64,000 bases of DNA, from assembly GCF_050320075.1 (NCBI RefSeq), contig NZ_CP190018.1; one strand, given 5' to 3'. Below are positions 1 to 31,275 of this stretch, in pieces. Under the pieces are notes generated by a model, which saw only the letters and a list, made by a program, of their open reading frames with translations, had not been told where the DNA came from and searched no databases. Within the stretch, counting starts at the first letter, position 1, and every line of letters starts with the position of its first letter. Source of the DNA: Escherichia coli (GTDB taxonomy: Bacteria; Pseudomonadota; Gammaproteobacteria; Enterobacterales; Enterobacteriaceae). The translations under genes and the position numbers were made by a program.

Positions 1-95
1 CGTTGAGATTTTGCCTGCGGACGTCCTGGATACTTTTCATTTTCTGGAAAATCGCCTCATATATGAATCAGTAGATGATTCAATTTAAAGCAATA

Positions 96-20844: not shown

Positions 20845-22542
20845 ATGCCAATTTACACAGATGATCCGGGACAGGGCATTAACCAGCCAATTGGCAACGC
20901 GCCAGCAGGGCTTGGCGAATCGCTGCTTTCTTCCCTTAAGCAGGGATTTGAAGAGGGGCCGGTCATGTCCGGCTACCGCTTTGCGCAGGTCGACTCGCTG
21001 GCGAATGACCCAAACTCTACAGTTATCAGTAAGCAGGACGCAGATGAGCTCCTGAAGCAGTACGGCGTAAAGAGCATAAACGTGCCAGATTCTGGCGTTA
21101 CGCAGGCTTTTCTCGATCATGTTATTGCCGAACGCAAAGATTCTCTGGCACGCCAGCAGATTGCGATGTCGGCACCGAGCGGGTGGGTAGCCACGCCGCT
21201 TAATTTCGCAGCCAGCCTAGCTGGTTCAATGGCAGATCCTGGTAACGTGGCGCTGGCGCTGGTTCCGTTCGCTGGAGAAGCAAAGGCAGCTTCTGTGCTT
21301 GGCCGATTTGGCGAGCGATTTGTTGCGGGTGCACGCATGGGGGCAGCGCAGGCGGTGGTGACCGTGCCGTTTACCGGGCTGGCAGCGGCGGCGGAAGGTG
21401 ACGACTTCACCTATAGCAACGCGTTGGAAAGTACTTTCTTTAACACGATGGCTGGCGGTCTAATGCATGCCGGCGGCGGCCTTATCGCCGATATCGTGCG
21501 ACCGCGTCGCGTTCCCGATGCTGCAACGGGAGAGTCCCCGGCGTTTTCTGGCGATGCGCAGCCAACCCCGGTGATAACGCCTGACAACATTCCGGCGGGC
21601 GTGAATATCCCTGAGGTTGGCGCTAACGCAGATCTGGCGGCGGCCATTTCCAGTGAAGCGGAGAGCTACGCATACAGCCGGGCTTATGACGACGTGGTTC
21701 CTGACTATATGGCGCGCCAGCAGGAGTTACAGAGCGGACAGATCGGTAACGTTGCCGACCTGCGTGCCGAGCTTGCGGCTAATCAACGTCATGCTGACTC
21801 GCTTGATGCGACTCTGCAGCAGCGCACCAAAAAGTATCAGGGGCAGCGGATGAAGTTTAAGGATGCGCGCTCTAGGGCACTGAAAGAGATTCAGGCCGAG
21901 AAAGACGCCATCGCTGCACGCAATCAGGAGATCAACACATCGCTGGAGCAGAACGCGACAGCAGAGCAGGCGCGCTGGCACCAGTCTCAGATTTCCCGCG
22001 GCGAGATCCCCGACGACCTGAAAGTCACCATTTCCGAGCGTGCGCAGCAGATCCTGGACGGCATGCAGATGTCGCCGATCGCTGGCGCAGTTCGCACTGC
22101 CGCAAGCGCCATCAGGGATGCTGACTGGAGCGTGAACCAGCAGGCGTATCGCGCTGCGCTGGCACACATGATGGAAGGACGTAGCCCAGATGTTGAGCCC
22201 TTCTATGAACTGCACAAATCGGCACTGCGTGAACGCGCCATCCATCGCATACAGAACCCGGCACGGCAGGTTGATGAAACGGCTCGCCCAGTAAGCGAAA
22301 CAGCCGATCGGGTTTATCAAGAAACGCAAAAGGCAGATCATGAAATTACCGCTGCCGCTGCAGACCTTGATAACGAGCTCAACCTGAGTAACGCCCTGCT
22401 TGACGATATCGCTGTCGATAACCCTGATCTTGCGACCACGTTGCGCCAGAAACTCAATGATATTCGTGCCGACGCCAGCGACAATAGCATGAGCAACGCT
22501 TTCCGGGCATTTGCCGCCTGTATGATTAACCGGGGGATGTGA
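20845..22542 (+). CDS. Putative ejection/internal virion protein
   Basis: 565 aa, Ala-rich, coupled. Confidence 0.45.
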   Translation: MPIYTDDPGQGINQPIGNAPAGLGESLLSSLKQGFEEGPVMSGYRFAQVDSLANDPNSTVISKQDADELLKQYGVKSINVPDSGVTQAFLDHVIAERKDSLARQQIAMSAPSGWVATPLNFAASLAGSMADPGNVALALVPFAGEAKAASVLGRFGERFVAGARMGAAQAVVTVPFTGLAAAAEGDDFTYSNALESTFFNTMAGGLMHAGGGLIADIVRPRRVPDAATGESPAFSGDAQPTPVITPDNIPAGVNIPEVGANADLAAAISSEAESYAYSRAYDDVVPDYMARQQELQSGQIGNVADLRAELAANQRHADSLDATLQQRTKKYQGQRMKFKDARSRALKEIQAEKDAIAARNQEINTSLEQNATAEQARWHQSQISRGEIPDDLKVTISERAQQILDGMQMSPIAGAVRTAASAIRDADWSVNQQAYRAALAHMMEGRSPDVEPFYELHKSALRERAIHRIQNPARQVDETARPVSETADRVYQETQKADHEITAAAADLDNELNLSNALLDDIAVDNPDLATTLRQKLNDIRADASDNSMSNAFRAFAACMINRGM

Positions 22543-25091
22543 TGGCAGCAAACGAATTTTTGACGCAGTGCGAGCGCAGTGTAAATGCTGCCGCTGGTCG
22601 CGAGCTTTCTTCCGATGAGATGGAGTCGCTGGTGCGTGACATGAACGACACCACTAGGCGAATTCTGGCGACCAATGAGGCGCTGTCTCTGGAAGAGGCC
22701 GCGATGCGCGCAGCGGAAGAACTGAGCAATGCCGATATGCTGGCAAAACAGATTGAGTCCCGCAATAAGGCAATCAACACCCGTATTGCCGCACAACGAC
22801 TTAGAGAGCTTCGTACTATCTGGAAAGACCGCCCGGATATCGGGCTTGAAGCAATGCTGGTTGGCCGCAACGATGCGCGTACCGGCGCCCGCCGGTCGGT
22901 ATCTTCGGAGGTGGCGCAACTGCGCGGCAAGTATCATTCCGGTATCAACTACGATTTTGACCGTGCCGGGCTGGTGCAATTCATCGCCAGCGGCAGCAAT
23001 GACAGGGAAATTGCCGATGCAATGTGGCGCATAGGGCGCGGGCAGTCAACTGACGGTATGACAAGGCAATCCGTAAGCGCTGCACAAATCATCATGAAAT
23101 GGCAGGAAACTGCGCACATTGATGAGAACCGCGCCGGGGCATGGATACGCAAAGAGCCGGGCTATATAGTGCGCCAGTCACACGACATCATGAAGATCCG
23201 CGCCGCAGGTTATGAAGCATGGCGAAATGCTATTCTCCCGCGCCTTGATGAGCGCACTTTTGACGGCGTGGCTGACCGCGAGCAGTTCATGCGTAACATT
23301 TATAACGGGCTGGCTTCCGGCGTGCATCTTACATCTGAAAAGCCCGATTGGATGAATGGCTTTAAGGGATCGGCGAACGCAGCTAAACGCGCCAGCCAAG
23401 AGCGAATTTTGCACTTCAAAGATGGTATCTCGTGGCACGAGTACAACCAGCAATTCGGCACCGGCAGCCTGCGAGAGGCGCTGTTTGGTGGCTTAAACAG
23501 CGCTGCCCGCACAACGGGCATGATGCGCGTACTGGGCACTAACCCACAGAACATGTTTAAGTACCTGACGGACACCATTGCTGAAGATATCAGCAAATCC
23601 GGAAGACCGGCAGCGTTGGCTGACTACATGACGAAGGTGCGTCGCATTAACCGTACCGTAATGCCGCAGGTTGACGGCTCGCTAAATATTCCTGGCAGCG
23701 TAGGCTGGGCCAATGCGTCGGCGGCTGTACGCGGCTGGTTGCGTATGAGCCAGCTTGGTGGCGCGGTAATCTCATCGTTTAACGACGTGCCTATCGCCGC
23801 TACCGAGATGCGCTACCAAGGGCAGAATTTTATGCAGGCGTTGCTTGGTGCTATGAGAGGCCGCTTCACGCGTTACAACAGCGCGGAGCAGAAAGAGATC
23901 CTTTCCTCTATCGGAGTTTATTCCGACTCCATGACGCAGGAAATCATCCGGCGTATATCTGGTGATGACACGCTGAATGGAAAACTTGGTCGCGCGCAGC
24001 AGCTTTTCTTTAAGTACAACCTCATGAACTTCTGGACCGAGAGCGGTCGCAACAGCAACGCCATGATGATAACCAACTGGCTTGCAAAGAATGCTGACCA
24101 GCCTCATGCGCGGCTACCGGAAGACCTGCGACGCGTGCTGGATCTGCACGGTATTGGCGAACGTGAGTGGGAAATTTTTCGCAACATGGACATGGCCGAT
24201 AGCGAAGGTCGTAAGTTCATGACGACCAGCGGCATCCGCGGCGTGCCTGACGAAGTGATTGCCGGTTATGTAGAGAGTAAGGGGATCAAGCCAACGCAGC
24301 GCGCTATCGCTGACGCACGCGATCAATTGGAAGGGCAGTTGCGCGGCTACATCCTTGACCGCCTGAATATCGCCATGTCAGAGCCTGGCGATCGCACGCA
24401 GGCGTTTATGAAGATGGGCACGGTGCCAGGAACGGTGGCTGGGGAAGCAATACGATTCGCTGGTCAGTACAAATCGTTCACTGCAAGCTTCATGCAGAAC
24501 GTACTAGGACGCGAAGTATTCGGGCGTGGTTATATTCCTGCTGGGCTTGGTGAGTCGAAAACCGGATCGCTGACGAATGCTCTGCTGCGTAACGGGAAGG
24601 GGGCTTTCCTTGGTGCTGCAAACCTCTTTGTCTGGGCGACTATGTTTGGTTATATCTCCATGCAGTCAAAACTCATGCTGAAAGGGCAAACACCACGCCC
24701 GGCAGATGCCAAGACGTTTCTCGCAGCCGCATCTCAGGGGGGCGGTCTTGGCATCTTGGGTGACTTCATGTTTGGCGAGGTCAACCGCATGGGGGCCGGG
24801 CCGGTTACGTCGCTAATGGGACCGGCAGCATCGAACGCTGACAGCATTATCACGCTGCTCCAGCAGACCACGAGAGGGGATGCAGATTTGGGTGACTGGT
24901 ATCGCACGGCACTTGACAATACGCCATTCCTCAACGTGTTCTGGCTTCGTACGGCGATGAATGGTTTAATATTGAACCGGATACAAGATGCCCTTGACCC
25001 AGGCTCTCTTGAGCGTTATCAGCGCCGTGTTGAGCGTGAGCAGGGTAACGAATTTCTGATCCCACCATCGCAGTTCATGCTAGGGAAGTAA
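22539..25091 (+). CDS. Putative ejection/internal virion protein
   Basis: 850 aa, coupled. Confidence 0.45.
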   Translation: MMAANEFLTQCERSVNAAAGRELSSDEMESLVRDMNDTTRRILATNEALSLEEAAMRAAEELSNADMLAKQIESRNKAINTRIAAQRLRELRTIWKDRPDIGLEAMLVGRNDARTGARRSVSSEVAQLRGKYHSGINYDFDRAGLVQFIASGSNDREIADAMWRIGRGQSTDGMTRQSVSAAQIIMKWQETAHIDENRAGAWIRKEPGYIVRQSHDIMKIRAAGYEAWRNAILPRLDERTFDGVADREQFMRNIYNGLASGVHLTSEKPDWMNGFKGSANAAKRASQERILHFKDGISWHEYNQQFGTGSLREALFGGLNSAARTTGMMRVLGTNPQNMFKYLTDTIAEDISKSGRPAALADYMTKVRRINRTVMPQVDGSLNIPGSVGWANASAAVRGWLRMSQLGGAVISSFNDVPIAATEMRYQGQNFMQALLGAMRGRFTRYNSAEQKEILSSIGVYSDSMTQEIIRRISGDDTLNGKLGRAQQLFFKYNLMNFWTESGRNSNAMMITNWLAKNADQPHARLPEDLRRVLDLHGIGEREWEIFRNMDMADSEGRKFMTTSGIRGVPDEVIAGYVESKGIKPTQRAIADARDQLEGQLRGYILDRLNIAMSEPGDRTQAFMKMGTVPGTVAGEAIRFAGQYKSFTASFMQNVLGREVFGRGYIPAGLGESKTGSLTNALLRNGKGAFLGAANLFVWATMFGYISMQSKLMLKGQTPRPADAKTFLAAASQGGGLGILGDFMFGEVNRMGAGPVTSLMGPAASNADSIITLLQQTTRGDADLGDWYRTALDNTPFLNVFWLRTAMNGLILNRIQDALDPGSLERYQRRVEREQGNEFLIPPSQFMLGK

Positions 25092-26030: not shown

Positions 26031-26054
26031 CACAAAAAAGCCCGCAGCGCGGGC
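26031..26054 (-). terminator. Rho-independent terminator ending the minus-strand accessory operon
   Basis: GCCCGC-AGC-GCGGGC immediately after stop 26055-26057, followed on the minus strand by CTTTTTTGT. Confidence 0.7.
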
Positions 26055-26603
26055 TTACTTTTCTTCAGGTTTGTTGTCTTCAGATTTCTTCTTGATGCTT
26101 GGTTTTTGTCTAAGAACGAAAATACCAGCCACTGCAACAACTGTACCGATCACTGTGCCAGCTAGAACTTCATGACCTGTTAAACCTAATAATGTTGCAC
26201 AAGCTACTGTAAAAATAGTTGCACTCAGGCCAAACCACTGCCCACGTTTATCTCTATTAATAGCCCCGTCAAGTGCCTTTTCCTCCATTTTCTGGCGGTG
26301 AGCAAACTCCTTCTCCGTCAGCTGGAAGATGCGTTCGGGGGCATCAGGTAAAATATCCTGATACCCGCGAAGCAGATAGGGGGGAGGAAGCGGACCCTGA
26401 AACGCATGGTGAGCGACAACTATCTCCTGAATTTCAGGGCGATCAAGAACTCTTGTGAAGGCATCTGGGTGTTGAATGATCTCGTTACTTAGCCCTTCCT
26501 CAACTTCCTCGAACTCAGTTTCTTCGTTATCACTTGGTTGCCCAATAGATTTTTGCATATTTGTCGAAGGACATTCCTTTAGCTTCTGGTTTTCCTCTTG
26601 CAT
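26055..26603 (-). CDS. Membrane protein: acidic N-terminal soluble domain plus C-terminal TM helices (possibly DUF2335-like)
   Basis: 182 aa; hydrophobic stretch WFGLSATIFTVACATLLGLTGHEVLAGTVIGTVVAVAGIFVL near the C-terminus; start 26603 or 26558. Confidence 0.5.
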   Translation of the reverse strand: MQEENQKLKECPSTNMQKSIGQPSDNEETEFEEVEEGLSNEIIQHPDAFTRVLDRPEIQEIVVAHHAFQGPLPPPYLLRGYQDILPDAPERIFQLTEKEFAHRQKMEEKALDGAINRDKRGQWFGLSATIFTVACATLLGLTGHEVLAGTVIGTVVAVAGIFVLRQKPSIKKKSEDNKPEEK

Positions 26604-26856: not shown

Positions 26857-26977
26857 ATGAACCTCAACCAATCGACTTTACCAATCGGGTAATTTTAAAC
26901 ATGAGTATAATGCTTTTAACTGCAACGAGTGTAAACAATTATTGATAATTGTAGGCACATCCCTGTGCCGCCGCCCG

Positions 26978-27664
26978 TCAGAAGAACCCTGCTTTGTCGT
27001 TGATGTACTCCGCGTGCGTCTGGATATCACGCAGGCATTTACTCACACCGACGATGTAGCAGAACATGGTGGTCAACTCCGCCGCCGCGCCCGATACGTC
27101 GTGCCCGTCGTCCTGTAACTGGTTCAGCAAATTCATCAGCAGTGAGTTCTCCGTCAGGCCGAGAACACCAGACGGCGAATGAATCAGGCTACGGTAGCCG
27201 GGCTTCAGTGGGGCGCTGTAGGTTTTGTTCTCTATCTTCATTGCCTGCATCACTGCTGATGCTGTGGCGTTGGCTACCTGGTCGGCAACCATCTTTATGC
27301 GTTCTTCCTGCGGGAGCGAGTTTTTAATGTAACTTCCGGTGCGGCGGATCTGAGGAAGAACCTCACCTGTAACCCATTTGCGAAAGCGGTAGGGGATAGT
27401 GCCTGGTGTTACTGCATCGCGGCAGCGGAGGATCAGTGTGTAGAGGCCTGACTCGTTGATAATATTGGTTTCGCCTTGACGGCCTAAGTTAAATTTAGCC
27501 CTTTCATCATCATCAAGAGATTTTATTGACATAGTGGGGTTTGTCAGTTGAAGAGCTTTAATAACGTCTTTGGCAACAAACCAAGGATTTCCATCAATAA
27601 CAATGGCTCGAATGGTTGCTTCTGATTCAAAATGAAAAACAGATGGGGTTACGTTAGCAGTCAT
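26978..27664 (-). CDS. Bro-N domain antirepressor-like protein (start trimmed to ATG 27664)
   Basis: N-terminal FHFESEATIRAIVIDGNPWFVAKDVIKAL...NIINESGLYTLILRCRDA resembles Bro-N; SD AAGGTGA before ATG 27664. Confidence 0.6.
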   Translation of the reverse strand: MTANVTPSVFHFESEATIRAIVIDGNPWFVAKDVIKALQLTNPTMSIKSLDDDERAKFNLGRQGETNIINESGLYTLILRCRDAVTPGTIPYRFRKWVTGEVLPQIRRTGSYIKNSLPQEERIKMVADQVANATASAVMQAMKIENKTYSAPLKPGYRSLIHSPSGVLGLTENSLLMNLLNQLQDDGHDVSGAAAELTTMFCYIVGVSKCLRDIQTHAEYINDKAGFF

Positions 27665-27932
27665 AGTGATCACCTTTGTAGTTAGGTTAATCACCACTAC
27701 CGACGCCAATCGGTTGGTGGTGAACTGTGCAGGGTTGGCGTAACCGGCTACAAAGGACCCGGCGCACCTTTCGGTGCCCCCACACAGCCCACCATAGAAT
27801 AGGTGCGCTTTACACATAAAAAAAACCGCTTATGCGGCATATGTGCCTCTGTAGTAACTCGGGACGCCAATCCCGGCACTGGATTTTGCCAGTGCCCGAT
27901 TACTATGGCACAAGAGGAGTGCGTTGTAAATT

Positions 27933-27947
27933 TACCGCAAAGGTAAA
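27933..27947. promoter_or_regulatory. Operator-like palindrome TTACCGCAAAGGTAA upstream of the Bro-N gene
   Basis: Perfect copy, intergenic. Confidence 0.6.
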
Positions 27948-27977
27948 TATAAGCACTCCACTTGGCAATTGCAAACC

Positions 27978-28235
27978 TTATCTGGTTTGTTTTCGTAATT
28001 GTTCGGCACAATAGTCGAGATGTGTTTGCAGATCCCGCATAGACATCTGTGAGCTGGTGACGTAGTTAATCAGTGCAGTCAGTTCGGCAAGTGGGCCATC
28101 GACATTAAATCCATCCTTATCGAGATCCCGGAGTAATTTCATCAAGTGCGATCCCTCCACCAGTGACCTGACGCCTCCCGGCGTGTGAATCCTTTCGGTA
28201 AATCCGTCTTCCAGTGGATAGTGATACTGCTGCAT
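27978..28235 (-). CDS. Small protein paralogous to the C-terminal domain of the adjacent Bro-N protein
   Basis: HTPGGVRSLVEGSHLMKLLRDLDKDGFNVDGPLAELTALINYV...MRDLQTHLDY aligns with Bro-N C-terminus HSPSGVLGLTENSLLMNLLNQLQDDGHDVSGAAAELTTMFCYI...LRDIQTHAEY. Confidence 0.5.
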   Translation of the reverse strand: MQQYHYPLEDGFTERIHTPGGVRSLVEGSHLMKLLRDLDKDGFNVDGPLAELTALINYVTSSQMSMRDLQTHLDYCAEQLRKQTR

Positions 28236-28312
28236 CTTAATCTTCTCCATGCAATAACTGTATATTTATACAGTATCAAATAATTTGTTTGCTATCCAGC
28301 ACGTTTTGCAAA

Positions 28313-28327
28313 TTACCTGAAAGGTAA
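28313..28327. promoter_or_regulatory. Operator-like palindrome TTACCTGAAAGGTAA in the divergent region before the tailspike gene
   Basis: Perfect copy; identical to the copy at 9248. Confidence 0.6.
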
Positions 28328-28431: not shown

Positions 28432-31275
28432 ATGACGGTCTCAACCGAAGTTGACCACAACGAATACACAGGTAACGGCGTTACGACATCGTTTCCGTAT
28501 ACTTTTCGAATTTTCAGAAAATCAGACCTGGTTGTTCAGGTGTCTGACCTGAACGGGAACGTAACAGAATTGGTTCTGGATACCGGTTATACGGTAACTG
28601 GGGCGGGCACTTATAGTGGCGGTTCAGTGGTTCTGCCGTCTCCGCTTGCTGCTGGCTGGCGAATTACGATAGATCGTGTGCTTGATGTAGTGCAGGAGAC
28701 AGACCTCCGCAATCAGGGAAAGTTTTTCCCCGAAGTGCATGAAGATGCCTTTGACTACCTGACGATGCTGATCCAGCAATGTTTTGGGTGGTTCAGACGT
28801 GCATTGATGAAGCCCTCTCTGCTTGCAAAATATTACGATGCAAAGCAAAACAGAATTTCTAACCTTGCAGATCCATCACTTGAGCAGGACGCTGTAAATA
28901 ATCGCTCAATGCGTAATTATGTCGATGCTGCAATCGCCGGAGTTGTTGGTGGTTTTGGTTGGTTTATTCAGTATGGTTCTGGGGCAGTATATCGCACCTT
29001 CCAGGACAAGATGCGAGATGAAATAAATGTTCATGATTATGGTGCTATAGGTGATGGAAATTATCACCCGCTTTCTGAACGTTATTCATCGTTGGCTGCT
29101 GCGCAGCAACAATATCCATTTGCTACTTCCCTTGGTCAGTCTATTGACTGGGCTGCAATACAGGCAGCGATCAATGCCTCACAAGGCAGAAAGGTAAAAT
29201 TATTAGCAAAAACATACATTTCTACTGATGGATTCACTGGCGTTGATGGTCTTTGTTTAATTGGTGAAGGTGCTACCCCTTTTTACCTTAACTTTCAGGA
29301 CATTCCATACACCAACAATGGTGGTACTGACATTCTTTTCTATGGTACAGGCCAAAAGAACAGAAGCATTTATGGTATTTCGGATATGCAGCCATCCGGT
29401 GGTGTGAGGACAGATCCTGATTTAGGCGTGACTCATGCATTAACCAATATGACGAATGGAGACGCCAGCACTTCGGCGGCTGCAACCCCTCGAGCAGTAA
29501 GCGCTGGCTTATACCTTGAGCATTGCAAAGGCTGGCAAATTGAGGGAATCCGATTTGCTCCATATTTTAACGGGGTCGAATCATATACAGACCAGACTAA
29601 CTTAGGGCTGGCTGATGAATGGGATATCGGAATTCTCATCAATAGTTCTTATGATGGTGTAATGCGCGATGTTCGCGCGGTTGGGCACTGGCGAGTTGCT
29701 GGCCTGGCTGTGTTTGCAGGCGAAAATCCTTTCAACACAGGCGCGTCATCTTCATGTGAACGAAACAGATTTTTTTCCTGTCAGTTTAATGGAAAGTCTG
29801 GCGTTCTTATTCGCGGCGGGGATGCCTACCGGTGTACAGCAGTAACAGCTGACACTGTCGAAATTCCATGGCACGATTCAAACCCGTTCCGGCATACCGG
29901 TGGGGTATTTCTTGGGGCCTTTGGTGGCGCAACCTCTGCAAGCTATACCTATACCAGCGCAACGGTTACCGGTGATAAGCTGACGCTCCACGGAGTAAGC
30001 CCTAACCCTTTATCGAATGGTATGACAACATCTTCAGGGGTGTATACCGGTAGAAGTTATGGGTTCCAGGGTACGCAATTCTTTGGTTGTTACTTTGGCG
30101 GCCTTGAGCATCAGACTAACCGAGTGGCTACAGACCCGGCGCTTACCTCACCATTCCCTACGTCGTCAAAACCTGTCGAAATTTCAGGTGTTCCGGCAGG
30201 AAATATCAGGTTCTATGGTTGTACGCACATGACCCGGGAAGACTGTGTGTGGATGATCCATAACGCCTCAAATATCTACGACTTCGGAGGCTATTTTGAG
30301 GCCAAGCGAGCGATCACTGCTACTGGCGGCGGCTCGCGCATGGTAGCCATCGGTAATTGGCCTGATTACACCCCGACTGCAGAATCACCATATCCGTTTG
30401 GTACGGTCAGTAACATAAATATGTTCGGTTCGCAGGCTCTTAATTTCGTTGATATGTACCCTGTAGTTGCCCGTTCTACAGGTGTAACGCGCTTTACCTC
30501 CGGGATGTGGGATTGTAAGACCCTCTATAGCTCCGAGGCATTTCAGGATCTTGCTGACACCAACAACTATGTAATAAAGGGTTTACGAAACGAAAGCATA
30601 AGGTTCGAGGACGGAGCCGGCGGCCATCTTATGACCATGCAGAATATTGGCAATCTCCTGCTTGGTAAGCGCGCCAGATTTAACACCTCAACAGAGGATC
30701 GTTATCAGTTCTATCGACTCGATGGAACAACCATTTTCTTATCCCTCGATGGCACGATGTCCACGCCAGTAATGACTCTGGATGGAAACTTTGTCCCTGC
30801 AGTTGCCAATACAAGGTTGGTCGGAACTGCGGCCAAGCCCTTCTCGGGAGGTAATACCCAGACAGCTTATAACATCACTTCTGACCGGAACTACAAAACT
30901 GACTTTGGTGAAATTCCTGACGCCGTTCTGGATGCATGGGAATTGGTGCAGTATTCACAATATAAACTCAGGGATGCAGTTGCGTTGAAGGGGGAAGGCG
31001 CCAGATTACATGTCGGTGTTGTTGCACAGCAGGTGAAAGAGGCATTTGAATCAGTAGGGGTCGATCCTTTTGCATATGGCGTACTGTGCTACGACGAATG
31101 GTCTGGTCAGGAAGAAGTTATTGAGGACGGTGTCATTACGCAGCAAAAAGTGGAAGCAGGGAAGCGTTACAGTGTGCGCTACGAAGAGGCATATGCAATA
31201 GAGTCCGCCTTGCTTCGGAGAACTCATACCAGATTGGAGCAGCGCTTATCTTCTCTTGAAGAAAAATCAAAATAG
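28432..31275 (+). CDS. Tailspike/tail fibre protein with C-terminal intramolecular chaperone (peptidase S74-like) domain
   Basis: 947 aa; GGAG RBS; N-terminal virion-binding-like region; C-terminal region containing SDRNYK and GVVAQQVKEAFESVG resembles autocleaving chaperone domains. Confidence 0.7.
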   Translation: MTVSTEVDHNEYTGNGVTTSFPYTFRIFRKSDLVVQVSDLNGNVTELVLDTGYTVTGAGTYSGGSVVLPSPLAAGWRITIDRVLDVVQETDLRNQGKFFPEVHEDAFDYLTMLIQQCFGWFRRALMKPSLLAKYYDAKQNRISNLADPSLEQDAVNNRSMRNYVDAAIAGVVGGFGWFIQYGSGAVYRTFQDKMRDEINVHDYGAIGDGNYHPLSERYSSLAAAQQQYPFATSLGQSIDWAAIQAAINASQGRKVKLLAKTYISTDGFTGVDGLCLIGEGATPFYLNFQDIPYTNNGGTDILFYGTGQKNRSIYGISDMQPSGGVRTDPDLGVTHALTNMTNGDASTSAAATPRAVSAGLYLEHCKGWQIEGIRFAPYFNGVESYTDQTNLGLADEWDIGILINSSYDGVMRDVRAVGHWRVAGLAVFAGENPFNTGASSSCERNRFFSCQFNGKSGVLIRGGDAYRCTAVTADTVEIPWHDSNPFRHTGGVFLGAFGGATSASYTYTSATVTGDKLTLHGVSPNPLSNGMTTSSGVYTGRSYGFQGTQFFGCYFGGLEHQTNRVATDPALTSPFPTSSKPVEISGVPAGNIRFYGCTHMTREDCVWMIHNASNIYDFGGYFEAKRAITATGGGSRMVAIGNWPDYTPTAESPYPFGTVSNINMFGSQALNFVDMYPVVARSTGVTRFTSGMWDCKTLYSSEAFQDLADTNNYVIKGLRNESIRFEDGAGGHLMTMQNIGNLLLGKRARFNTSTEDRYQFYRLDGTTIFLSLDGTMSTPVMTLDGNFVPAVANTRLVGTAAKPFSGGNTQTAYNITSDRNYKTDFGEIPDAVLDAWELVQYSQYKLRDAVALKGEGARLHVGVVAQQVKEAFESVGVDPFAYGVLCYDEWSGQEEVIEDGVITQQKVEAGKRYSVRYEEAYAIESALLRRTHTRLEQRLSSLEEKSK

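Follow-up and report, generated by a model that had tools for sequence, protein, structure and literature searches.

The locus studied here raises the question of why a prophage should carry, directly beside a gene for a complete antirepressor, a free copy of that protein's C-terminal domain. It lies at positions 26,978–28,235 of a 64,000-nucleotide (nt) stretch of Escherichia coli DNA, referred to in the following as the window, and was analyzed together with its flanks. Two genes are encoded on the minus strand, one for a small protein of 85 amino acids and one for a 228-residue protein with an N-terminal Bro-N domain, referred to below as the composite antirepressor. The original prediction took the free copy of an interaction domain beside the full-length protein for a decoy, a dominant-negative regulator or a partner subunit. 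Instead, we consider it fairly probable that the locus encodes two antirepressors with one and the same binding module for the phage repressor Rep, of which one is gated by the SOS response and the other by RNA. As far as the sequence can tell, the lytic switch of this prophage is best explained by a non-cleavable Rep that is inactivated by antirepressors. The two genes and the domains of the larger product are as follows:

27978–28235, minus strand: small ant gene, for an 85-residue stand-alone antirepressor, the SPC32H Ant orthologue (profile search, BLASTP, Foldseek, phrog_450 and synteny)
26978–27664, minus strand: composite antirepressor gene, 228 amino acids (Pfam, PHROG, BLASTP and AlphaFold2)
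27613–27353, minus strand: Bro-N domain (Pfam PF02498, residues 18–104, E 1.3e-19)
27238–26981, minus strand: SPC32H-Ant-like C-terminal domain (phrog_450 over residues 145–226)

BLASTP aligned residues 3–84 of the small protein with residues 143–224 of the Bro-N protein, with 34 of 82 positions identical (41%), 57% positives and no gaps (E 2e-21), which agrees with the 40–45% identity to the C-terminal ~80 residues that had been estimated earlier. Both proteins matched phrog_450 (E 2e-48 and 6e-36), and both subfamilies keep 23 positions, among them the polar residues H17, D41, E51, D68, T71 and H72, so that the shared segment reflects real homology. Nine other positions are subfamily-specific. 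Both genes are intact and are kept across genera. In the composite protein, a helical, disordered linker separates the Bro-N domain from the C-terminal domain. Its residues 110–228 had no match in Pfam or NCBIfam, KilA-C/ANT (PF03374) included, and the protein also matched phrog_130 Ant. In the AlphaFold2 (AF2) model, residues 164–227 repeat the helix pattern of the small protein, including its long C-terminal helix, a likeness that concerns secondary structure only.

The small protein is, as judged by homology and fold, the orthologue of Ant of the Salmonella temperate phage SPC32H. An hmmsearch with the profile of the small-protein family gave E 1.5e-48 for chain E of PDB entry 5D50 ("Anti-repressor protein", 86 amino acids), and BLASTP showed 87% identity to this chain, which is SPC32H Ant, across 83 amino acids. 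The AF2 model, with a predicted local distance difference test score (pLDDT) of 84.6, consists of three short helices and one of 39 residues. The sole significant PDB match found with it by Foldseek was again 5D50 ("Rep-Ant complex from Salmonella-temperate phage"), with template modeling scores of 0.69/0.75 to 5d50_G. The SPC32H gene annotated "ant" (SPC32H_020) has a similar length and occupies the identical slot, divergent from the tailspike gene. Across Escherichia, Salmonella, Citrobacter, Klebsiella and Enterobacter, the length of the protein is constant at 85–86 amino acids, at identities of 59–100%. The open reading frame (ORF) extends from 28250/28235 to 27978 on the minus strand, giving 90 amino acids from the first ATG and 85 from the ATG at 28235; the latter has a GGAG Shine–Dalgarno (SD) sequence and yields the product annotated in relatives. 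Scans of the small protein against Pfam and NCBIfam returned no family. A single weak match to DUF724 (E 0.006) was rejected as chance. Almost all records call the product a "hypothetical protein", and PHROG labels phrog_450 as of "unknown function".

SPC32H Ant was the subject of Kim and Ryu (2013, J Virol 87:11775) and Kim et al. (2016, PNAS 113:E2480). Papers that cite this work describe Ant as being made after LexA self-cleavage and as inactivating the repressor by protein–protein interaction (PMC7380047), by binding and disassembling it (PMC7380047, PMC9638917, PMC9986798). Ant is reported there to be a tetramer (PMC9638917), and the C-terminal tetramerization domain of Rep is given as its contact (PMC9986798). 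By orthology, the small protein of the window would be an autonomous effector, already characterized as the DNA-damage-triggered antirepressor of epsilon15-like phages. In SPC32H, epsilon15 and SPN1S, the small gene is the only copy of the domain.

The small ant gene is preceded by a predicted binding site for LexA:

28258–28273, no strand assigned: LexA (SOS) box CTGTATAAATATACAG, upstream of small ant at a distance of 8 nt from the first ATG and 23 nt from the ATG with the SD sequence

This site, CTGTATAAATATACAG, is a perfect CTGT-N8-ACAG and the sole one in the window with an AT-rich core. It aligned with the SPC32H box, CTGTATGTTTATACAG, and with the boxes of other genera. For comparison of related loci, we used 80 prophage loci from IMG/VR in which the small gene is 98–100% identical; nearly all of them have a predicted LexA box upstream of the small gene, as do phiV10, SPC32H, Tyrion and BUCT554. 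In Klebsiella phage ST512-KPC3phi13.3 and in a distant locus, L093 (individual loci are given L numbers), the box has one mismatch. Read from its sequence, the box would place small ant under LexA control. Of the original proposal, the paralogy and the idea of an interaction module are borne out, whereas a role as decoy, dominant-negative regulator or accessory subunit of the Bro-N protein is not supported: the small gene is a known effector with its own LexA box, and acts as the sole copy in SPC32H. It is the fused copy that is dispensable, being disrupted in phiV10 and absent from several prophages, and a gene insertion can separate the two units.

The composite gene appears to be controlled in another way. 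In the immI region of phages P1 and P7, a C4 RNA made from the same transcript blocks antirepressor synthesis at the ribosome-binding site through the targets a2 and b2, with a1 and b1 lying upstream. The corresponding elements in the window are as follows:

27902–27930, minus strand: predicted sigma-70 promoter, TTTACA-17-CATAGT, with a TG motif before the -10 (consensus scan)
27819–27895, minus strand: IsrK-like small RNA carrying a1/b1 mimics of the C4 target, with an intrinsic terminator at 27838–27825 and a T-run (Rfam RF01394)
27713–27799, minus strand: C4-type antisense RNA gene (Rfam RF01695)
27673–27709, minus strand: a2 and b2 targets of C4 (a2, TTGGCGT, 27709–27703; b2, CTACAAAGG, 27681–27673)

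The IsrK-like RNA scored 74.2 bits with RF01394 (gathering score 50), and an overlapping match to c4-a1b1 (RF03163; 27908–27856, minus strand) reached 44.3 bits, just under the gathering score of 46.7. The C4 match was full-length at 79.5 bits (gathering score 45), with the consensus structure kept. The C4 segments ACGCCAA and CCUUUGUAG exactly complement a2 (7 nt) and b2 CTACAAAGG (9 nt), and near-copies of the two targets, UUGGCGU and CUACAGAGG, are found in the IsrK-like RNA. Within b2 lies the AAGG of the Bro-N gene's SD sequence, which is located 6 nt before the ATG at 27664. Transcription from the predicted promoter would start near the IsrK 5' end, since the 5' end of the Rfam match is at 27895. 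The IsrK-like RNA ends in a GC hairpin and a T-run, which we read as a leaky terminator. Upstream of this RNA, as far as the small gene, no terminator was predicted in this window.

A separate ORF equivalent to icd was not found in the interval from C4 to the ATG at 27664. Instead, the leader ORF continues in frame into ant: the mechanically predicted ORF covers 27817–26978 (279 amino acids), its stop-free extension from the ATG at 27817 traversing the C4 gene into the antirepressor, and the functional ATG, with an SD sequence, is at 27664 and gives the 228-residue protein. An N-terminally extended isoform, or translational coupling of the leader ORF, is possible. The leader ORF begins right after the IsrK terminator; it is the counterpart of "orf45" of Gifsy-1 and is annotated "ash family protein" in phage vB_EcoP_ZX5 (ZX5). 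Fusion of this leader ORF to the antirepressor has also been reported for Shigella dysenteriae, in the same study that showed IsrK of Gifsy-1 to relieve, in trans, a translational block on the Bro-N antirepressor AnrP, which induces the prophage (Hershko-Shalev et al. 2016; PMC4825925). The leader alone (27690–27875) is ~85% identical to more than 100 records of Stx-converting and other lambdoid phages, and tblastn gave no match to the C-terminal domain in these leader-sharing records. The IsrK/C4 leader appears to be a portable regulatory cassette that is placed before different antirepressor genes.

The composite protein is best read as a second antirepressor with an ancient, whole-Ant paralogue as its effector domain. 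Over-expression of ORF4 of ZX5, which consists of a Bro-N domain and a C-terminal domain 99% identical to that of the window, brought the lysogen titer down about 1000-fold (1e9 to 1e6) and cut repressor mRNA by 75%; the paper mentions neither the small gene nor SPC32H (PMC9782041). The small-Ant-like domain is common to phage loci with various N-terminal domains, for which Pfam confirmed five families: Bro-N, AntA, P22_AR_N, pRha and ORF6N. Among the 80 prophage loci, the C-terminal domain was 90–100% identical while the N-terminal part varied. The near-constant C-terminal domain is attached to at least four Bro-N variants (60–100% identity, among them variants at 100%, ~72% and ~60%), to AntA, for example in L003 and L021, or to P22_AR_N in a 336-residue protein encoded on the opposite strand in L004; pRha or ORF6N is joined to remoter homologues of the domain. 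The N-terminal domains belong to antirepressor families that also hold proteins with other C-termini. The finding of five unrelated N-terminal domains on one C-terminal domain points to the latter as the constant, phage-specific functional part.

Several of the 80 loci have two fused copies and several have none. Two fused antirepressors together with the free Ant, that is, three copies of the fold, were seen in L012, L024, L027, L066, L068, L071 and L077 and in TL-2011b and HEMP4; such double copies have near-identical Ant-like C-terminal domains and different N-terminal domains, and are often on opposite strands. The fused copy is absent from SPC32H, epsilon15 and SPN1S, and several prophages keep the small gene without it. 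In phiV10 (L001, 4015–4262), the Ant-like domain of the fused gene is interrupted by a gap of ~12 residues and a frameshift, and the annotation gives two ORFs, p23 and p22. Since phiV10 is viable, the fused copy is evidently dispensable.

The repressor that both proteins are proposed to bind is represented in the window by its very beginning:

2–40, minus strand: first 13 codons of an SPC32H-type rep gene (MKSIQDVRRQNLN), found by tblastn with SPC32H Rep; the remainder of the gene lies beyond the window's left edge

The ZX5 repressor starts with exactly these 13 residues, and near-identical phages carry a full-length Rep. Reps of the SPC32H family combine a helix-turn-helix N-terminal domain with a tetramerizing C-terminal domain. 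ZX5 Rep is 42% identical to SPC32H Rep over its full length. Searches of 50,697 phage records found Rep homologues in 36 and Ant homologues in 35, essentially the same set. With tblastn, the fused-type domain was found in ~19 records, all of them within the Ant/Rep set, and in none of the other ~50,000. This restriction to phages with an SPC32H-type Rep is the strongest reason to think that the fused domain is specific to that repressor. The domain family is small, with 62 clusters at 50% identity among 1.8 billion representatives. Across five phages, co-variation of Ant, free or fused, with Rep showed no clear trend.

Both ant units are also associated with a palindrome:

28313–28327, no strand assigned: palindrome TTACCTGAAAGGTAA (TTACC-N5-GGTAA), probable operator, between the tailspike gene and small ant
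27932–27946, no strand assigned: second TTACC-N5-GGTAA, overlapping the predicted IsrK/C4/Bro-N promoter
26878–26892, no strand assigned: third TTACC-N5-GGTAA, immediately following the composite ant gene and preceding the ORFs of 113 and 182 amino acids

The window contains eight exact TTACC-N5-GGTAA sites (at 96, 2427, 2489, 6082, 9248, 26878, 27932 and 28313), all intergenic and all in the phage part, where ~1 would be expected even with one mismatch allowed. The rep–cro intergenic region has an exact site at 96–110 and a one-mismatch site at 144–158; a further site is listed at 481–495. The site 91 nt upstream of small ant is kept in most of the 80 loci and in SPC32H, Tyrion, BUCT554 and Klebsiella phages, and ATTACC-N5-GGTAAT was found just upstream of the LexA box in all genera aligned. 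The second palindrome, 289 nt after the small ant start, is conserved or moves with the module where there is an insertion (sites +1029/+1122), and is at the equivalent place in the distant L093. Together, the three sites beside the two ant units hold positions that most related loci and L093 share. More broadly, the palindrome is kept in Salmonella, Enterobacter and Klebsiella relatives and in L092 and L093. It is probably the operator, at many promoters, of Rep or of another phage regulator. In P1, too, C1 operators are dispersed over the phage genome, with one at the immI promoter.

Taken together, these elements suggest the following course of events. In the lysogen, LexA would block small ant and C4 RNA would block translation of the composite gene, while a regulator bound to the palindromes would probably damp both promoters. 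DNA damage would remove LexA, so that Ant is made and strips Rep from its operators, as derived from SPC32H. The composite protein, with the same Rep-binding module behind another gate, would be made when the balance of C4 and IsrK tips. This might happen upon infection, before C4 has accumulated, in which case the protein would serve anti-immunity like Ant of P1 and P22; or it might happen when Rep starts to fall off and the IsrK-like RNA titrates C4, in which case it would act as an amplifier. Speculatively, SOS transcripts could add a1/b1 decoy RNA, because no terminator was predicted between the small gene and IsrK.

A more elaborate form of this scheme is a two-stage switch, which we put forward only tentatively and regard as rather unlikely. 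Here, free Ant would deliver the first hit, and loss of Rep from the palindrome at the IsrK promoter, together with titration of C4 by ant-IsrK read-through RNA, would then release the composite protein, which would lock induction; or else the composite protein of a superinfecting phage would attack the resident Rep unless resident C4 blocks it. If the superinfection form is true, C4 would be what really determines the specificity of immunity in these podophages, as in P1/P7.

Several points weigh against the proposal of two antirepressors with a common target. Only the first 13 codons of rep are inside the window, the gene being almost wholly outside it. Binding of the fused domain to Rep is a prediction from homology. 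Recognition of Rep by Ant in the E. coli phages is itself assumed, because small Ant is 87% identical between SPC32H and the E. coli phages (L083 and L086 compared with L087 and the window), where the Reps are only 43% identical, and 38% in the C-terminal part. Either Ant contacts a few conserved residues of Rep, or its binding is promiscuous, as with the antirepressors of the Gifsy phages. For the composite protein, AF2 gave a model of low confidence (pLDDT 66.5). A sigma-70 consensus scan found no promoter upstream of small ant, and for the protein that would bind the palindromes, both Rep and another phage regulator are candidates. Finally, the ZX5 experiment was made with a glutathione S-transferase fusion under strong over-expression (PMC9782041).

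How old the two copies are bears on whether they work together. Within a genome, the free and fused domains are 36–39% identical in global alignments (E. coli, Tyrion and a Klebsiella phage) and 37–44% in local ones (E. coli, the Klebsiella phage and L093), and in three further genomes there was no within-genome convergence of the paralogues that would indicate gene conversion or co-adaptation. A rough neighbor-joining tree placed the free copies apart from the fused ones, with the N-terminal domain types mixed within the fused clades. A recent local duplication was rejected on these grounds, the identity being 36–44% within each of four genomes and the tree splitting free from fused. The order of small Ant, IsrK, C4 and an N-terminal domain joined to the Ant-like domain is kept in Tyrion, Klebsiella phages and L093; the last of these has a pRha N-terminal domain and a small Ant with only 44% identity to that of the window. 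That both copies of an old duplication have stayed next to each other argues for different functions.

That pair could also be the two subunits of one machine, in which mixed tetramers form from small Ant and the C-terminal domain of the composite protein, and in which the former tunes, poisons or recruits the Bro-N protein, or the reverse. We regard this as unlikely, although it has points in its favor. Ant is reported to act as a tetramer (PMC9638917), 23 positions are common to the two proteins, as is the arrangement of helices with the long one at the C-terminus, and the retention of the pair over deep divergence, with different N-terminal domains, suggests a functional link; moreover, with no terminator predicted between the small gene and IsrK, SOS transcription could enter the second unit. 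If true, mixed tetramers of Ant and the composite protein would bring the DNA-binding Bro-N domain to the Rep complex. However, small Ant works alone in SPC32H and epsilon15, without a second copy; phiV10 has a disrupted fused copy, and several prophages with the small gene have none. The identity of 36–44%, the lack of within-genome convergence and the clustered, subfamily-specific substitutions in the long helix of the Ant-like domain also speak against co-assembly, and the substitutions would fit insulation of two assemblies. In L022 (3281–4009) and ~25 other IMG/VR loci, an 830-base-pair insertion lies between small ant and the IsrK module. It holds a gene on the opposite strand for a 242-residue protein, a moron that has a membrane anchor at its N-terminus and is Cys-rich in its C-terminal region; this protein had no match in PADLOC. 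Because an opposite-strand gene can come between them, small ant and the Bro-N module are separable transcription units, which again does not favor a single machine.

It is quite unlikely, in our view, that the shared segment of the composite protein is simply a tetramer scaffold, on which the N-terminal domain acts on some other target (DNA, the repressor of another prophage or a host factor). One long helix makes up the C-terminal half of the domain, a feature of many coiled-coil oligomerizers, and N-terminal domains of the KilA-N/Bro-N type may bind DNA or partners by themselves. Antirepressors of the Gifsy type are known to hit non-cognate repressors (PMC3121763). A generic module would not, however, be expected to be confined to phages with an SPC32H-type Rep, and conservation between the paralogues is strongest in the N-terminal short helices and the polar residues, not just in the long helix. 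The five unrelated N-terminal domains found on one C-terminal domain, and the shift of ZX5 away from lysogeny when ORF4 is over-expressed, likewise fit poorly with an effector located in the N-terminal part.

Finally, the small ORF might be a non-functional, truncated remnant of the composite antirepressor, as its "hypothetical protein" annotation in almost all records and its lack of a Pfam or NCBIfam family could suggest, but this is highly improbable and, for practical purposes, refuted by the orthology with SPC32H Ant, a protein of known structure and published function. Moreover, the length is constant across genera, the SD sequence is conserved together with the LexA box, and the free copies form their own clade apart from the fused domains.

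The locus is a 100% match to the chromosome of E. coli strain YZLc1-3, and the first ~37 kilobases of the window are an epsilon15/phiV10-like podophage of the genus Uetakevirus, present as a prophage; the nearest phage records are vB_EcoP_ZX5, EC.W1-9, TL-2011b and phiV10. About 237 of 5,426 complete E. coli RefSeq genomes have at least 80% of the two-gene locus. Both ant genes sit in a short minus-strand region that is flanked by two genes on the plus strand:

22539–25091, plus strand: large virion-protein gene
28432–31275, plus strand: tailspike gene

Downstream of the composite ant gene are two ORFs on the minus strand. The first (26871–26530, 113 amino acids) belongs to phrog_10654, to which PHROG assigns no function; the second (26603–26055, 182 amino acids) belongs to phrog_3996, a "moron" membrane protein. 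The palindrome and promoter-like sites lie before them and a strong bidirectional terminator (26038–26056) after them. PADLOC and NCBIfam scans gave no match for either.

The assignment of the small gene closes an annotation gap: its product is called a hypothetical protein, is without a Pfam or NCBIfam family and falls in a PHROG of "unknown function", yet it is the orthologue of a lytic-switch protein of solved structure. It also identifies the functional part of the composite antirepressors, the constant C-terminal domain being a copy of a repressor-binding protein. That the C-terminal domain is a full copy of such a protein explains why the N-terminal domain can be swapped freely, and predicts which repressor is the target. 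One effector fold would be connected to two inputs, LexA and a C4/IsrK RNA circuit, within one phage. This bears on the induction of, and superinfection competition between, common prophages of E. coli and Salmonella, of which ZX5 and phiV10 are cultivable. The free gene was already known; its pairing with a C4/IsrK-gated fused paralogue, the five-way shuffling of N-terminal domains and the Rep-restricted distribution were not found described in the literature searched.

Among known systems, the closest to the small gene is SPC32H Ant, with 87% identity, the same length, slot and LexA box, and a co-resident repressor that is probably of the same family, to judge by the 13 codons in the window. 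In SPC32H, epsilon15 and SPN1S, the gene stands alone, whereas here a second unit carries a paralogous Ant. Tum of phage 186, GfoA, GfhA and GftA of the Gifsy phages and AntC of N15 are similar in that a non-cleavable repressor is inactivated by a small antirepressor with a LexA box, encoded outside the immunity region (Lemire et al. 2011; PMC3121763). They differ in that no sequence relationship with the small protein was detected, and the fold search found only 5D50.

In its second unit, the locus resembles the isrK-orf45-anrP region of Gifsy-1, which likewise has an IsrK RNA with a terminator, a C4-like "orf45" and a Bro-N antirepressor gated by RNA. The upstream neighbor there is antQ, in place of small Ant, and here the leader ORF is fused to the antirepressor. 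This Gifsy-1 version is a better match than immI of P1 in the strict sense, as icd is missing. The immI work in P1 and P7 on c4, icd, ant1 and ant2 is reportedly that of Citron and Schuster (1990) and Heinrich et al. (1995). Two forms of Ant are made in P1 from a single ORF, whereas in the window there are two genes, the effector domain of the antirepressor is unrelated to that of P1/P7, and the second input is LexA. Lastly, the composite protein has the same N-terminal domains, freely shuffled, as other composite antirepressors (Bro-N, AntA, pRha, ORF6N and P22_AR_N). The picture of such proteins as products of domain shuffling, with KilA-C/ANT C-terminal domains, is said to go back to Iyer et al. 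(2002). In place of a KilA-C or ANT domain, however, the composite antirepressor of the window ends in the fold of SPC32H Ant, which the same genome also encodes as a free protein.

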